The position numbers and the translations under genes are program-made. The notes beneath the pieces are model-generated. The model searched no databases and was not told the origin of the DNA. It saw nothing but the letters and a program-made list of their open reading frames with translations. Shown piece after piece: positions 12,282-17,222 of a DNA stretch of 64,000 nt; the first letter of the stretch is position 1; every line of letters starts with the position of its first letter. The stretch is from Syntrophales bacterium (GTDB lineage: Bacteria; Desulfobacterota; Syntrophia; Syntrophales; UBA2210), in contig CAXXKT010000001.1 in NCBI GenBank assembly GCA_963662405.2, positions 1,504,001 to 1,568,000 of the forward strand, read 5' to 3'.

Positions 12282-12545
12282 CTATTTGTAAGGAAAACAT
12301 GGATCATCAGGAGTGCCAGCCGTGGTGTGTTTTCTTATAATTTCAACTAATTCAACTGAATGCTGGGCAGCCGAATTCAATTCCTCGAGTGAATCGGAAA
12401 GACTCTTATTGGCCTCTCTCAGAGAATCTATTTCTTTTTGCAGCCCTTTACTTGATCGTCTGTGATAGAGTTCAGCAATAGATATTGAGACCAATGCACC
12501 TATTAGAGCACCGATAATTAATTCAATCATGTGACTCAAGCTCAC
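12282..12545 (-). CDS. Small hypothetical membrane-anchored coiled-coil protein
   Basis: AAGGAG RBS, N-terminal hydrophobic helix, AT-rich. Confidence 0.6.
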   Translation of the reverse strand: MSLSHMIELIIGALIGALVSISIAELYHRRSSKGLQKEIDSLREANKSLSDSLEELNSAAQHSVELVEIIRKHTTAGTPDDPCFPYK

Positions 12546-12561
12546 TGTTTATCTCCTTGGC

Positions 12562-12676
12562 TGCTAACAGCATTGAAAATGGAAGTTTCCTTAATTGTTC
12601 CGAAGGATTTCTTAGGAATGCAATCCATAAAGTAGATCGCTTTCCATAATTATCAGTAGGTTCTAAATTGTTAAAC
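12562..12676 (-). repeat. attC-like imperfect palindrome between small genes
   Basis: Minus strand GTTTAAC overlaps the upstream stop; inner ATGGAA/TTCCAT arms; ends in GTTAGC before the next RBS. Confidence 0.35.
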
Positions 12677-12886
12677 GAGTTTTCCATTATCGTATTTTTT
12701 GAGGAGTTGACCTTTGTGATTTTTAACGATTACCTTTGAGTAAGTATCTTTCTTGCTTGCAGCAAACTCTAATGCTTCTATCTTATTATCAAAATGTTCT
12801 ATTTTCATGCTGGGATCTTTGGGGTGATTTGGGCTCAGTGAACTTGTTCCTATATTATACATCGATACAGTAAAAGGGCTGGGCAT
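12671..12886 (-). CDS. Small hypothetical protein (71 aa) whose RBS is the IS insertion site
   Basis: ATG at 12886 preceded by ATAGGAG from the IS end; MPSPFTVSMY...KKYDNGKLV. Confidence 0.6.
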   Translation of the reverse strand: MPSPFTVSMYNIGTSSLSPNHPKDPSMKIEHFDNKIEALEFAASKKDTYSKVIVKNHKGQLLKKYDNGKLV

Positions 12887-12948
12887 GTGTCCTCTCCTAT
12901 AAAAAGTCAATTCATGGAGAGCCTGTCAAACAGGCCCATGGTTAAAAT

Positions 12949-14061
12949 TTAAACGGCCAAAGCATAACACCTCGCAACCTTACTCATCTCTACATATTTC
13001 GGGTCTGGCAGCATTTTCGATGGATCAAACGGCTCCCCCTTCTTCAAGATGGCATATACAATAGTGCTCATCTTTCGCGCCGTCGCTATTACGCTCTTCC
13101 CGGTTCCCTTGTTCTCTTTCATGGCTTTGTATTTGTACATAAGCCAATATCCATCGGTTTTATTCCGAAGCCGTAGCATCCCCATTACCATTTGCACAAA
13201 AGCCGTCCTCAGTTCCACGGGGCCTCGCTTGGTAATATGACCATGGCGAATGGTCTTGTTGGAGTTTTGAACCCATGGTACCAAACCGGCATGAGCAGCA
13301 TACTGCTTGGCGCTCTCATATCGGTTGATGTCATCGGTATAAGCCCGAATCGTCGCTGCTGTTATTATTCCAACGCCAGGAATCGTTTGCAACAGAGCAA
13401 CATCCTCGTCTTCAGAAACAAGATCAGATAATACGCGCTCAAGTCCTTTGACCTCGGATGCAATTTGGTCTATTGTACCAAGAAGCGGTTTTACCGCTCG
13501 GGCAGCGTTTCCGTAACTCCTATGGTCCGCGAGACCGTCAAGGATTCGCTGCCTTTCTTTTTTGCTCTGCAGCTGTCCCCGCCGACTCTCTATCCCATAT
13601 CCAAGCAATAAACCGTGTATCTGGTTTTTCAAGGATACCAAAGCTTTCACCAGAACAGAACGTGACTTGAGAAGCCTTCGAATGTCCTCGCTTTCCTGCG
13701 AACAAAGAATGGACTCGGGAAGCATATCTTTCTCAAGAAACTCAGCCAATGTGCGGGAATCATGCTTGTCAGTCTTTTTTACTGACTCATTTACAACCTT
13801 GAATTTCAAGGTGTTCACTATCTTGACCTCAATCCCCGCCTTCAAAAACCGGTTGCGAAAGTGTCGGGTGTTCCCTGTTGATTCCACCGCTGCCGTGACC
13901 TCGTAACCGCCCTCATTCCAGTTGGACACCTTCATGATAAATGCCCGGTAACCTCGATCAGTCGTCGGGTAGATGCCCGACTCCTGAACACTCCGATCTT
14001 CACTCAAACAACAAACGGTAAACTGCGTCTTGTGAAGGTCAACCCCGATACTCATCTTCAT
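12949..14061 (-). CDS. IS110-family DEDD transposase/recombinase
   Basis: GVDLHK, AVEST, KKTDKHD (DEDD tetrad), TIPGVG, AGLVPWVQNS, GHITKRG; GAGGAGG RBS. Confidence 0.95.
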   Translation of the reverse strand: MKMSIGVDLHKTQFTVCCLSEDRSVQESGIYPTTDRGYRAFIMKVSNWNEGGYEVTAAVESTGNTRHFRNRFLKAGIEVKIVNTLKFKVVNESVKKTDKHDSRTLAEFLEKDMLPESILCSQESEDIRRLLKSRSVLVKALVSLKNQIHGLLLGYGIESRRGQLQSKKERQRILDGLADHRSYGNAARAVKPLLGTIDQIASEVKGLERVLSDLVSEDEDVALLQTIPGVGIITAATIRAYTDDINRYESAKQYAAHAGLVPWVQNSNKTIRHGHITKRGPVELRTAFVQMVMGMLRLRNKTDGYWLMYKYKAMKENKGTGKSVIATARKMSTIVYAILKKGEPFDPSKMLPDPKYVEMSKVARCYALAV

Positions 14062-14089
14062 AGAACGCCTCCTCACATCTTGGACAGCG

Positions 14090-14262
14090 CCTGTCAGGTG
14101 AATTGGTCCCAATCTCCTATTCGATCTCGAAGATCATTGAATGTTGCGGCTACAGCTCTTCATTCTCCTTTGCGGTCTCGAAGACCAGTAAACATGTCGA
14201 ACAGTAGCCTTGCTGCCCAAAACTATAAAGTTTCAAACAGTGTATCCCAATTCACAGCTCAT
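14090..14262 (-). ncRNA. Putative IS110 bridge RNA
   Basis: Closing stem GTGAATTGG/CCAATTCAC; two twin hairpin loops carrying target-matching (CAAAGGAGA) and donor-matching (ATAGGAG, CATTC) segments. Ends are approximate. Confidence 0.75.
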
Positions 14263-14447
14263 GAAGACTTTTTATCATTCCTCCTTTGTCGTGAGTTCAT
14301 AATGGTCAAAACTATATACCACATATTTTAATCTTACCCGAAAATATCAGCGAAATGAAATCCAGGGGAAAATAGAAAAACAGCGACAACAGCGCCCATT
14401 TTTGACACAAACCGGCGTCCGGGAAAAGAGAGCCGAAAAGCTTGGAA

Positions 14448-14990
14448 CTATATATTTCTTGACATACCATGACAATAAAATTATACGAAGATTACGTTTT
14501 TTTGAATCAATCGTATCGCCGGATGATTGTGAGCGGCAGTGACCCGGAGTGGATTATGGACTGATCATGGAAAGCCCCATTTCTGAAAGAAAGAGATGGG
14601 GCTTTTGTTTTGTCTGATTGAGCAGATCGAGCGATCAAAGCAACGAAACAGACCGAGAAAGGGAGATGGTATGAACCGTCTGCGCAGAATCATCGTCACT
14701 CTTCCGGCCGTGGTTGCCGCTGTTGGCCTCCTCGCCGATCCCGTCCCGGCCGGGGACCTGGATTCCCCGTTCGCCCCCGGCGCCACCAGTTCCTACACAC
14801 TGGAGGACCTCTACAACCGCCTCGACACCGGTGCAGCCGGGACCCAGTCCAGCTTCACCGAACCGACTAACGGCCCGACCGCGGGGACCGTGCACACCGT
14901 CAACGAGATCATGGCCAAGGCCCCCGCCGCCGATGAGGACAGCGGGGCCACGGACACCGACGTGTCGGCCGGAAAGACCTACTGGGGCCT
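14448..14990 (+). repeat. Duplicated promoter + leader + N-terminal coding module, copy 1
   Basis: Near-identical to about 15882-16425. Confidence 0.9.
14571..14611 (+). terminator. Intrinsic terminator in a 5' leader, copy 1
   Basis: AAAGCCCCATTTCT...AGAGATGGGGCTTTTGTTTT. Confidence 0.75.
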
Positions 14991-15807
14991 CACCAACGGG
15001 GCATGGGGCGTGCGGAACGGGACAGGCTCCGCCGGTGGTCTGGCCCCCTCGGCGGCCCAGTATGTCTTCGTGGAGCTGGCCGAGGGGAACACCGACGTCC
15101 AGAACGGAGCGGCCCTCCTGGCGGCCTATACCCAGGCAAAGGGGCTCACCCCGGGGGCGGCCAACCGTATCGCGGTCATTGTCCCGCCCGGGCGCTACGA
15201 CCTGGGCACGGGGGCGGTTACCCTCGATACCGCGTACATCGACCTTGTGGGCCTGACCACGGACCGGGAGGCGCAATGCATCTACGGGACCTCCAACGGA
15301 GCAGGCACCGGCGTCCTCATGCAGACCGCCGACAACGTGGTCATTGCCAACCTGACCATCGAGTGCACCCGGAGCAGCGGGAGTTTAAGCCAGGATGCCA
15401 CCGGCCCGGCGGCCTATTTTCCGAACACCAATCTGCCTCATACGACCGTCAGAAACTGCCTGTTCACGGCCACGGAATATGCCTGGTCCATGCGTATTTC
15501 CATCGAATATGCCGGCACCTATGAAGACTGCACCGGGGGAAGACGCTCTTTCGGCGGCGCCGGCGCCGGCGGCACGGCCAGCGGCACCTTCACGAACTGC
15601 ACTGGCGGGGGGGGCTCTTTCGGCGGCGGCGGCGGCACGGCCGGCGGCACCTTCACCCGCTGCACCGGGGGGAATCAATCTTTCGGCAGCTTTGGCACGG
15701 CCGTCGGGGGCAGATTCTATTACTGCAACGGCGACGGTTCCCATTCCTGGAACGGCGACGAAACAACCACCGTGTACTGCATCAAAAACGGCAACCCCTA
15801 TCCGTAG
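14671..15807 (+). CDS. Secreted protein: shared N-terminal module plus beta-helix/Gly-rich repeat C-terminus
   Basis: Signal peptide; GTFTxCTGGxxSFG repeats; VPPGRYDL beta-helix-like start. Confidence 0.75.
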   Translation: MNRLRRIIVTLPAVVAAVGLLADPVPAGDLDSPFAPGATSSYTLEDLYNRLDTGAAGTQSSFTEPTNGPTAGTVHTVNEIMAKAPAADEDSGATDTDVSAGKTYWGLTNGAWGVRNGTGSAGGLAPSAAQYVFVELAEGNTDVQNGAALLAAYTQAKGLTPGAANRIAVIVPPGRYDLGTGAVTLDTAYIDLVGLTTDREAQCIYGTSNGAGTGVLMQTADNVVIANLTIECTRSSGSLSQDATGPAAYFPNTNLPHTTVRNCLFTATEYAWSMRISIEYAGTYEDCTGGRRSFGGAGAGGTASGTFTNCTGGGGSFGGGGGTAGGTFTRCTGGNQSFGSFGTAVGGRFYYCNGDGSHSWNGDETTTVYCIKNGNPYP

Positions 15808-15881: not shown

Positions 15882-16425
15882 CTATATATTTCTTGACATA
15901 CTATGACAATGGGATTAGATGGAGATTACGTTTTTTTGAATAAATCGTATCGCCGGATGATTGTGAGCGGCAGTGACCCGGATGAGGATTATGGACTGAT
16001 CATGGAAAGCCCTGTTTCTGAAAGAGAGAGATGGGGCTTTTGTTTTGTCCGATCGAAAAGATCGAGCGATCGAAACAGCGAAACAGACCGAGAATAAGGA
16101 ATTGATATGAACCGCCTGCGCAGAATCATCGTCGCCCTTCCGGCCGTGGTTGCCGCCATGGCCCTTCTCGCCGGTCCCGCCACGGCCGGAGACCTGGATT
16201 CACCGTCCGCCCCCGGTGCCACCAGTTCCTACACACTGGATGACGTTTACAATCGTCTGGACGCGGGCACGGCCGGTTCCCAGTCCACCTTCACCGAACC
16301 GGCTGGCGGGCCGACCGCGGGGACCATGCACACCGTCAACGAGATCATGGACAAGGCCCCGGAGATGAATGATACCAGCGGGGCCGCCGCCGGAGATGTA
16401 ATGGCCGGAAAAACCTTCTGGGGGC
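15882..16425 (+). repeat. Duplicated promoter + leader + N-terminal coding module, copy 2
   Basis: Near-identical to about 14448-14990. Confidence 0.9.
16006..16046 (+). terminator. Intrinsic terminator in a 5' leader, copy 2
   Basis: AAAGCCCTGTTTCT...AGAGATGGGGCTTTTGTTTT. Confidence 0.7.
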
Positions 16426-17222
16426 TCCTGTCCGGAGGCGGATGGGGGCTTCAAACCGGAAGCCTGGCCACTCAAACCCCGGACAGCGCCACTGTCAATC
16501 AGGCGGCAGGGTATTATAACGCATTTGATCTCTCCACGGTGGATACCGACCTTACGGCCGCCAACATCAAATGCGGGGTGACCATCTTCGGTGTGGCCGG
16601 GACCCATCTCCCCGGTTGCGTGGCGAAAACGGGCCAGACCGCGTGCTACGACGCATCAGGAACCGAGATCGATTGCTCCGGTACCGGCCAGGATGGCGAC
16701 TATCAGAAGGGATGTGAACCGGCAGTTGCTCCTTCCACCTCTGGCTTATTTGGTGGTTACAATCGGAAGTCGTTCCTCCCGTGCGACGCAGGGTTCACCG
16801 ACAACGGGGACGGCACGGTGACCGATAACCTGACCGGGCTGATCTGGCTGAAGAATGCGAACTGCACGGATACGGTCGGAGGTGTGGACAAGAGCGAAGG
16901 GAACCTGATATGGGCGGATGCTTTGACGTGGTGCAACAATCTGGCGGACGGCGCTTGCGGGCTCACCGACGGTTCCGCTGCCGGCGACTGGCGCCTGCCC
17001 AATTTAAATGAGTTGAGGAGTCTTGTGGGCGCCACCAATATTGAGCCCTATTTACCGTCCGGTCATCCCTTTATCAACGTTCAGGGTAACATGTACTGTT
17101 CGAGCACGACCAAAGCGGACGAAACGGGCAAAGCGTGGCATGTGGACACGCATTTTGAAAGGGTGTCGTCCTCTGACAAAGGCCTCGTGCGCTACGTATG
17201 GCCCGTCCGCGGAGGGCAATAG
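16107..17222 (+). CDS. Secreted DUF1566 (Lcl C-terminal) domain protein
   Basis: KTGQT, FTDNGDGTVTDNLTGLIW, DWRLPNLNEL, YVWPVRGG. Confidence 0.88.
   Translation: MNRLRRIIVALPAVVAAMALLAGPATAGDLDSPSAPGATSSYTLDDVYNRLDAGTAGSQSTFTEPAGGPTAGTMHTVNEIMDKAPEMNDTSGAAAGDVMAGKTFWGLLSGGGWGLQTGSLATQTPDSATVNQAAGYYNAFDLSTVDTDLTAANIKCGVTIFGVAGTHLPGCVAKTGQTACYDASGTEIDCSGTGQDGDYQKGCEPAVAPSTSGLFGGYNRKSFLPCDAGFTDNGDGTVTDNLTGLIWLKNANCTDTVGGVDKSEGNLIWADALTWCNNLADGACGLTDGSAAGDWRLPNLNELRSLVGATNIEPYLPSGHPFINVQGNMYCSSTTKADETGKAWHVDTHFERVSSSDKGLVRYVWPVRGGQ

Follow-up and report, generated by a model that had tools for sequence, protein, structure and literature searches.

A probable bridge RNA with an unusual guide layout in an IS110-family insertion sequence found at ribosome-binding sites of a Syntrophales bacterium

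The IS110-family element and its relatives

The window, i.e. the whole 64,000-nt stretch of Syntrophales bacterium DNA analysed here (contig CAXXKT010000001.1, positions 1,504,001 to 1,568,000), carries on its minus strand an insertion sequence of the IS110 family, which occurs in this genome in nine copies. An initial annotation, made from the sequence alone, had proposed that the left end of this element encodes a bridge RNA with separate target- and donor-binding loops, and we have followed up this proposal by comparing the element with its relatives. The element, its gene and its boundaries are laid out as follows (window coordinates; ORF, open reading frame).

12894..14280, minus strand: whole insertion sequence, 1387 bp (GAATGATAAAAAG ... 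TTGACTTTTTATAGGAG); nine copies, 100% identity, unrelated flanks
12949..14061, minus strand: recombinase gene, 370 amino acids, start MKMSIGVDLHK, GAGGAGG before it
14281..14287, minus strand: left target half (LT) AAAGGAG, a Shine-Dalgarno sequence; 8/9 own copies
14276..14280, minus strand: right donor half (RD) GAATG, nt 1-5 of the element; complementary to loop 2 on its 5' side
14268..14275, minus strand: right arm of the subterminal inverted repeats, ATAAAAAG; the relatives retain it, and its reverse complement CTTTTTAT lies at 12906-12899
12894..12910, minus strand: right end TTGACTTTTTATAGGAG, with -35-like TTGACT, repeat arm CTTTTTAT and left donor half ATAGGAG
12671..12893, minus strand: right target half and downstream host ORF, ATG at 12886, 71 codons

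The recombinase contains the domains PF01548 (8.1e-19) and PF02371 (3.2e-20), and scores 228.9 bits, with a cut-off of 140, against the NCBIfam model NF033542, 'IS110 family RNA-guided transposase'. It combines an N-terminal DEDD (RuvC-like) domain with a C-terminal Tnp domain, and the DEDD residues D8, E60, D98 and D101 and the catalytic serine S267 are invariant in the 14 relatives of the protein alignment. Its sole solved relatives are the bridge recombinases of ISCro4 and IS621, which match with an E-value of ~1e-18, mainly in the C-terminal domain. The identity to IS4321 and other named elements is about 22-27% (26.6% over 77% of the query for IS4321), so that, judged by sequence, the recombinase appears about equally distant from IS4321 and IS621.

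Among 8000 candidates scored, 3696 matched the recombinase, and the best 120 of these are 67-91% identical to it. The reference-genome set comprises 40 loci, mostly from Spirochaetia metagenome-assembled genomes, one genome contributing 12 copies and a Marispirochaeta assembly 8; the metagenome set comprises 80 of 211 confirmed loci. The left ends were gathered in 103 instances with 76 distinct sequences, of which 75 were kept after the removal of one false start.

The element starts with GAATG and ends with ATAGGAG, and leaves non-coding ends of 219 nt on the left and 55 nt on the right. As in other members of the IS110 family, there are no terminal inverted repeats, and a short sequence is common to target and donor: AGGAG is found at both junctions in all nine copies. 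The crossover point inside AGGAG is not defined, because these bases are shared by the left target half and the right end of the element. The left flanks of the nine copies read AAAGGAG in eight cases and TAAGGAG in one, and the right flanks show no mutual relatedness. The 8-bp subterminal inverted repeats CTTTTTAT / ATAAAAAG come to lie 10 bp apart when the two ends are joined. The right end TTGACTTTTTATAGGAG, read by eye and untallied, is unchanged in all but a few relatives down to 55% protein identity; the exceptions are a duplicated variant (L027) and a diverged variant (L032).

No uninterrupted empty site was found when the flanks of one own copy (L007), the left of which is itself repetitive, were sought in 20 relatives. 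The boundaries therefore rest on the nine copies, on a head-to-tail junction in the metagenome contig L120, and on the relative L115, in which an unoccupied duplicate of the target lies 30 nt upstream.

Conserved structure of the left end

The sequences on which the proposal was built were found on the minus strand at 14196-14164 (module 1) and 14143-14113 (module 2), the GGCTAC/GTAGCC stem at 14209-14204 and 14153-14148, and, at 14255-14247 and 14106-14098, the two arms GTGAATTGG/CCAATTCAC of the outer stem. The minimum free energy (MFE) fold of 14090-14280 contains the two small hairpins together with the closing and GGCUAC/GUAGCC stems, as the initial annotation had drawn them, and also a 12-bp 5' hairpin at 14240-14213; its z-score is -2.65, and 2 of 200 shuffles fold as well. 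The left end is thus predicted to be a structured RNA with two internal loops, which is another trait of the IS110 family. The elements of the fold are as follows.

14247..14255, minus strand: closing stem, 5' arm GUGAAUUGG; pairs with 14106-14098, 7/9 pairs change on both sides
14213..14240, minus strand: 5' hairpin (CUGUUUGAAACU / AGUUUUGGGCAG) of the MFE fold; helix 2, 6/6 outer pairs change on both sides
14148..14209, minus strand: target-binding module, basal stems GGCUAC/GUAGCC and GUUC/GAGC around an internal loop, and a hairpin
14173..14187, minus strand: loop-1 hairpin UGGUCU-UCG-AGACCG; helix 4, 92.9% of cells paired, 4/6 pairs change on both sides
14122..14136, minus strand: loop-2 hairpin UGAUCU-UCG-AGAUCG; helix 6, 97.9% of cells paired
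14098..14106, minus strand: closing stem, 3' arm CCAAUUCAC; helix 1

The proposed helices and the 5' hairpin were then examined in 73 left ends (70 distinct rows), from which L044, with a deletion, and L046, with a duplication, had been excluded. Standard pairs fill 88.6% of the cells, compared with 28.5-42.6% after a shift of the 3' partners by 1-3 columns, and 24 of the 42 pairs are changed on both sides; none of 500 shuffles matched the observed pairing or covariation score. It is this comparison across relatives, rather than the MFE fold, which excludes chance folding. Compensatory change is clearest at pairs 27/217 (GC in 44 rows, AU in 20) and 28/216 (AU in 39, GC in 23) of the closing stem, and at pairs 182/193 (GC in 38, AU in 32) and 183/192 (UA in 42, CG in 25) of the loop-2 hairpin. 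The basal stem of the target module (helix 3) is paired in 91.9% of cells, with four pairs changed on both sides. Only 69% of the cells are paired in the 5' hairpin, because the alignment is poor there across sub-groups, and no covariation is seen across the 70 rows in the stem of two pairs on which loop 2 rests.

Three left ends are variants: L044 has a chimeric single loop, in which the loop-1 5' side is joined to the loop-2 hairpin, and a broken recombinase frame; L046 carries a tandem duplication of the left-target guide; and L051 has an insertion of ~17 nt in the loop-1 hairpin.

The donor loop and the ends of the element

The two sides of loop 2 correspond to the two ends of the element.

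14139..14143, minus strand: right-donor guide CAUUC, loop-2 5' side; complement of the first 5 nt of the element
14114..14120, minus strand: left-donor guide AUAGGAG, loop-2 3' side; identical to the right end at 12900-12894

In 67 of 74 relatives the loop-2 5' side is complementary, by Watson-Crick rules and without mismatch, to the initial 5 nt of the element, and this holds across seven variant pairs, i.e. GAATG/CATTC, GTATG/CATAC, GAACG/CGTTC, GCACG/CGTGC, GCATG/CATGC, GAGTG/CACTC and GTACG/CGTAC. Among the remaining relatives, three pair with G.U-type wobbles and four have one mismatch. The loop-2 3' side AUAGGAGA is present in all 74 relatives. Module 2 had been matched to a circle junction ATAGGAG|GAATG, which was deduced from the ends of the nine identical copies; the same junction is seen directly, head-to-tail, in L120 (near 1439). 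In another metagenome contig, L092 (near 1473), two copies of the element stand head-to-tail with 8 nt between them. The head-to-tail copies in L120 and L092 could be tandem insertions or assembled circles.

Across the junction, TTGACT of the right end is followed after 17 nt by TAAAAA with an upstream TG, an arrangement that is conserved in relatives. TAAAAA and the TG before it lie within the repeat arm at 14268..14275, and may form the -10-like part of a promoter.

The left target half and natural retargeting

The 3' side of loop 1 has the sense of the top strand and would base-pair to the left target half's bottom strand.

14165..14171, minus strand: left-target guide AAAGGAG, loop-1 3' side; covaries with the left flanks

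The identity between this guide and the left flank at positions -8 to -1 is 0.25, 0.83, 0.93, 0.97, 0.95, 1, 1 and 1, respectively, in 92 distinct sites of 66 elements, and the covariation of loop 1 with insertion sites that a programmable system should show among its homologues was thereby found. At the five variable guide positions a mean of 3.92 bases are identical, compared with 2.94 +/- 0.08 after permutation (2000 permutations, maximum 3.17). As position -8 agrees with the flank in only 25% of the 92 sites, the left guide comprises 7 nt (-7 to -1). The 9-nt match CAAAGGAG|A between module 1 and the reconstructed empty site, as first put forward, accordingly needs trimming: its seven bases at -7 to -1 act as the guide, and the agreement of the first and ninth bases is coincidental. 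The A following GGAG is invariant in the RNA, whereas position +1 varies among the targets and is G in the donor. A handshake-type guide, formed by the AAUGA that follows the left-target guide and resembles the start of the element, was considered and rejected, because AAUGA is constant in relatives that start with GCACG, GAACG or GTATG.

Ten relatives, from closely similar metagenome contigs, have rewritten guides, and their flanks follow, with rG.dT wobbles in three cases. The change is from AAGGAG to CACGGAG, CGCAGAG, AGGGGAG or TAGGGAG, with the following guides and flanks.

Guide (G/C)CACGGAG: flank CACGGAG or CACAGAG
Guide TCGCGGAG: flank TCGCAGAG
Guide CAGGGGAG: flank AGGGGAG
Guide CTAGGGAG: flank ATAGGGAG
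Guide CCACAGAG: flank CACAGAG

Since only GAG is common to target and donor in the retargeted elements, the shared core is bounded at 3 nt. The 66 relatives carry no fewer than 24 distinct 8-nt left-guide strings, position -8 being counted with the 7 guide bases, and natural reprogramming can be read directly from this family.

Eight of the retargeted elements (L092, L101, L107, L108, L115, L124, L125 and L127) are located in short, repeat-like sequence, for example CACGGAG followed by GACACAGAG, runs of TAGGGAG and TGGGGAG, or two copies of CTCTCGCAGAG|GCGC ~30 nt apart, and the left motif is often repeated in the right flank.

Placement at ribosome-binding sites and the right target half

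As the 7-nt target is a Shine-Dalgarno sequence, the element lands ~6 nt upstream of start codons. Seven of the nine own copies lie between a Shine-Dalgarno sequence and the ATG of an ORF of 71-239 codons, compared with 233 of the 908 free AAAGGAG sites in the genome that lead to an ATG-started ORF of at least 60 codons (binomial P ~0.002 by our own arithmetic); the 7-nt match alone therefore cannot account for the placement. Either the right arm of the loop helps to choose the site or selection removes other insertions. Family-wide, 69 of 73 Shine-Dalgarno-type sites have an ATG at +4 to +13, 40 of them at +7. Every copy reads in the same direction as the downstream gene, and, because the element ends in ATAGGAG, that gene retains a GGAG at an unchanged distance from its start codon.

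The other strand of loop 1 is a candidate for the recognition of the right target half.

14188..14196, minus strand: loop-1 5' side CAUGUUUAC, candidate right-target guide (U-rich stretch and CAU)

The complement of this strand reads as an A-rich spacer followed by ATG. Of the 64 relatives with an AGGAG (Shine-Dalgarno-type) guide, 63 have CAT at the aligned position, as against none of the 10 retargeted ones. In the retargeted L115 and L092, the 5' arm matches the right flank at GCGC (+1 to +4) and GCACAGA (+1 to +7), respectively. Over 80 sites, the pairing signal at registers 0 and 1 was reached by 1 and 5 of 1000 permutations, respectively. The loop-1 5' strand probably adds a weak recognition of the right target half.

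A stem between CAU and AUG, 5' and 3' of loop 1, was rejected, as it shows no covariation and its pairing is broken in 6-19 of the 70 rows; a purely structural role for CAU was dropped because the retargeted group loses CAU yet keeps AAUGA. The ATG spacing was rejected as independent evidence for CAU:ATG pairing on the background counts of the genome with 12 copies (the L011 genome), in which all eight spacings (N3-N10) together give 166 ATG after WTAGGAG and 113 in the control, counts that include the right ends of the element itself.

Interpretation as a bridge RNA

Taken together, positions 14262-14095 of the window (minus strand, ends approximate) very probably encode the bridge RNA of an active IS110-family element. 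The IS110 domains, the NF033542 match, and the covariation of the loops with target and donor all support the proposal of a natural bridge-RNA-guided recombinase, and its natural programmability is visible in the relatives with reprogrammed loop 1. By extension, the RNA would be produced, bound by the recombinase and required for recombination.

Several observations weigh against this reading or parts of it. No Rfam family, be it a bridge RNA or another credible one, matched positions 12500-14700 (best E-value 1). Of the three sequencing runs on record, all from one study, none is entered as RNA. A promoter scan of the junction contig L120 did not call TTGACT-17 nt-TAAAAA, because TAAAAA lacks a T at position 6. 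Eight of the 12 left flanks in the L011 genome are ATAGGAG, which fits the donor guide better than the target guide UUUAGGAG. The pairing of the right half is weak, with 2.92 of 7 positions compared with 2.63 after permutation at the best register (80 sites), and was equalled in 104 of 1000 permutations when wobbles were allowed. Two of the nine own copies have no credible gene behind them, but ORFs of 11 and 4 codons. Finally, the excess of ATG after WTAGGAG in the L011 genome is itself concentrated at +7 (N6), with 56 compared with 13 in the control.

The last three points bear on a narrower version of the proposal, in which the RNA is the same but the site is chosen by the 7-nt left guide alone, the loop-1 5' strand being structural or near-neutral. 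The enrichment at gene starts would then come from selection, insertions within genes being lost and those that restore a ribosome-binding site being tolerated. We consider this version possible but somewhat doubtful. In its favour, the right-flank pairing is barely above the permuted level, the ATG positions of the own copies range from +6 to +10 without a peak, the +7 peak elsewhere mirrors the host's own spacing, two own copies stand away from a gene start, and half-site recombination is reported for IS621 in a preprint (bioRxiv 10.64898/2026.08.31.748434). On the other hand, the distribution of CAT between Shine-Dalgarno-type and retargeted relatives, the right-flank matches of L115 and L092, and the weak but non-zero pairing at registers 0 and 1 all argue for some contribution of the 5' strand.

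A more radical alternative is that the left end is a leader which regulates only the translation of the recombinase, and that the protein reads AGGAG directly to choose its site. AGGAG is indeed invariant in the donor and in most targets, and the Shine-Dalgarno-like AGGAG in both loops could bind ribosomes. However, flank positions -7 to -4 and element positions +1 to +5 change together with the loop sequences in many relatives, the retargeted elements insert at non-AGGAG sites that match their own loops, and RNA guidance has been demonstrated in the protein family of the recombinase, all of which makes this alternative very improbable.

Under the bridge-RNA reading, and by analogy with IS621, a circle, either excised or copied out, would join the right end to the left end to give ATAGGAG|GAATG. 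In the complex of recombinase and RNA, loop 2 would bind this junction and loop 1 a chromosomal (A/T)AAGGAG, and strand exchange would take place within the shared (AG)GAG. The ATAGGAG right end restores a ribosome-binding site with unchanged spacing; once the element is integrated, transcription from the host would extend into the RNA and the gene for the recombinase, and in the junction form the TTGACT-17 nt-TAAAAA promoter may arise. A further possibility, which we would not yet favour, is that the target loop mirrors a translation-initiation region, its 3' arm corresponding to the Shine-Dalgarno sequence and the U-rich run and CAU of its 5' arm to the complement of spacer and AUG. The element would park between ribosome-binding site and start codon, borrowing host transcription for its RNA and recombinase, and the host gene would receive a replacement ribosome-binding site.

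In the 12 copies of the L011 genome (L011-L022), the ATAGGAG flanks are identical to the element's own right end and disagree with the target guide UUUAGGAG at -6; T-rich sequence, too, is common to the right end and several of these flanks. They could reflect donor-loop ('half-match') targeting, or be remnants of earlier copies.

Comparison with known systems

Among the closest known systems are the bridge recombinases of IS621 and ISCro4 (Durrant 2024, PMC11208160; Hiraizumi 2024, PMC11208158), and bridge RNAs were reportedly predicted in most IS110 elements in 2024. The bridge-RNA principle itself is not new, and the present element is a known system with an unusual guide layout. In a 2026 preprint (bioRxiv 10.64898/2026.10.21.760802), which has 86 covariance models, 32,190 bridge RNAs have been modelled, and its figures and supplements may already include this family. 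One paper that treats bridge RNA, Shine-Dalgarno sequences and IS110 together mentions neither this target nor this layout in the text of its section 2.4.

The element resembles IS621 and ISCro4 (PDB 8wt6, 9t56) in its DEDD and Tnp domains, in having its RNA upstream of the recombinase gene, within a long left end, in the order of 5' hairpin, target loop and donor loop, in loops that each read opposite strands of the left and right halves, and in a -35 box in the right end. It differs from them in several respects: the strand order within the loops is reversed; the core-containing long arm is 3' rather than 5'; the 5' arm has no core; the subterminal inverted repeats are of 8 bp instead of 2-3 bp; insertion is at ribosome-binding sites instead of repetitive extragenic palindromic (REP) sequences; and the protein similarity is only ~1e-18, mostly in the C-terminal domain. 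The suggestion of the initial annotation that the guide order is opposite to that of IS621 was right: the 3' sides (AAAGGAG, AUAGGAG) have top-strand sense, and the 5' CAUUC is a top-strand complement.

The reversed order could nevertheless be only a matter of description, if the element has the canonical IS621 geometry viewed from the other DNA strand, with the site inverted relative to the RNA and recombinase genes and the guides unswapped. The bottom-strand donor would then be CATTC-CT-CCTAT, the 5' guide corresponding to its left half and the 3' guide to the complement of the core CT plus the right half. By our reasoning, the two-fold symmetry of duplex DNA makes the two descriptions equivalent; moreover, the invariant (G)AG beside the crossover is the complement of the CT core reported for IS621, and the 3' guide terminates in AG, as a core complement would. 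However, the 5' guide here has no core (CAUUC is followed by AA, not CU), whereas in Durrant 2024 (PMC11208160) the IS621 core is included in all four pairings, and the long arm is 3' here and 5' in IS621. The cleavage positions, for their part, cannot be read from sequence. The inverted site is a real possibility, which we nonetheless lean slightly against.

With the guides taken as swapped, the layout recalls the IS1111 group. PMC11208160 gives long left ends and 2-3-bp subterminal repeats for the IS110 group, and long right ends and 7-17-bp repeats for the IS1111 group; in Siddiquee 2024 (PMC11187229), IS1111 seekRNAs have the top-strand complement as the first of the two guides, and the IS110-type ISEc21 has it as the second. 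Like the IS1111-type elements with a seekRNA (ISEc11, ISPa11 and ISKpn4; PMC11187229), the present element has the top-strand complement 5' of the bottom-strand match, and its 8-bp subterminal inverted repeats fall within the quoted 7-17 bp range (PMC11208160). Unlike them, it has its RNA upstream, in the 219-nt left end, the 55-nt right end holding only a small hairpin and the end motif, and its identity to the IS4321 recombinase makes it no closer to that protein than to IS621. Tentatively, the clade might thus represent a third architectural type of the IS110 family, with the RNA upstream as in the IS110 group and with IS1111-like strand order and 8-bp repeats, although we would not yet favour this. 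If true, it might mark an intermediate stage of the shift of the RNA from one end of the element to the other that has been proposed. In the present element, RNA position and guide order are not coupled in the way that the IS110/IS1111 split implies, which bears on the evolution of both groups.

IS900 and IS901 of Mycobacterium avium reportedly have the orientation opposite to that of their target genes. The present element reads in the same direction as the gene, and its own end rebuilds the site. All three insert between a Shine-Dalgarno sequence and the start codon that follows it, as PMC2942039, citing Doran 1997 and Inglis 2003, states for IS900 and IS901. The target loop described here would offer an RNA-level explanation for this old observation that some IS110-family elements insert between ribosome-binding sites and start codons. 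For engineering, a donor code of 7+5 nt and a target code of 7 nt would be compact but of low specificity.

Promoter-like sites and other features

One further structure lies in the right end of the element.

12921..12935, minus strand: small hairpin GCCUG-UUUGA-CAGGC, just upstream of the -35-like TTGACT

The hairpin is kept in relatives with differing sequence, as seen by eye, and could stabilise the 3' end, act as a terminator-like element or be bound by a protein. Within the left end, an internal promoter TTGGGA-17-TATAGT at 14250-14222 was treated as a chance match, as it is not conserved in relatives. Two other promoter-like sites are consensus matches only: one lies upstream of the window's copy at 14475-14447, and the other, TTCACA-16 nt-TATCAT at 14251-14278 on the plus strand, faces out of the left end, on the strand that does not encode the bridge RNA, and was also called in L120.

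The left flank of the own copy L007 contains another repeat (L007:1-1083), 1083 bp long and present in three copies in this genome, with copies of 73% identity in another genome (G019). A stretch of ~190 nt (L007:1229-1421) likewise occurs in several copies in genomes of the same genus, e.g. with seven matches in G006.

Two further IS110-family elements, unrelated to the 1387-bp element, are found in the Syntrophales genome (G000). One of them, of ~1484 bp with a 400-amino-acid ORF and a 239-nt left end, is present in two copies (L130 and L131; C1:128994-130139 and 879849-880994). The other, of ~1340 bp with a 322-amino-acid ORF, a left end of ~260 nt and TCTTGACAA near its right end, is present in five copies (L132-L136; C2:343326-344246 and C1:158598-159518, 164082-165002, 1415830-1416750 and 305385-306305).

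Next to the element, the window contains two neighbouring paralogous ORFs on the plus strand, at 14596-15807 and 16107-17222, which encode proteins of 403 and 371 amino acids, respectively. They share similar upstream regions and near-identical N-termini (MNRLRRIIV...LDSP.APGATSSYTL), and their products look like secreted proteins, one of them with a glycine-rich tail.

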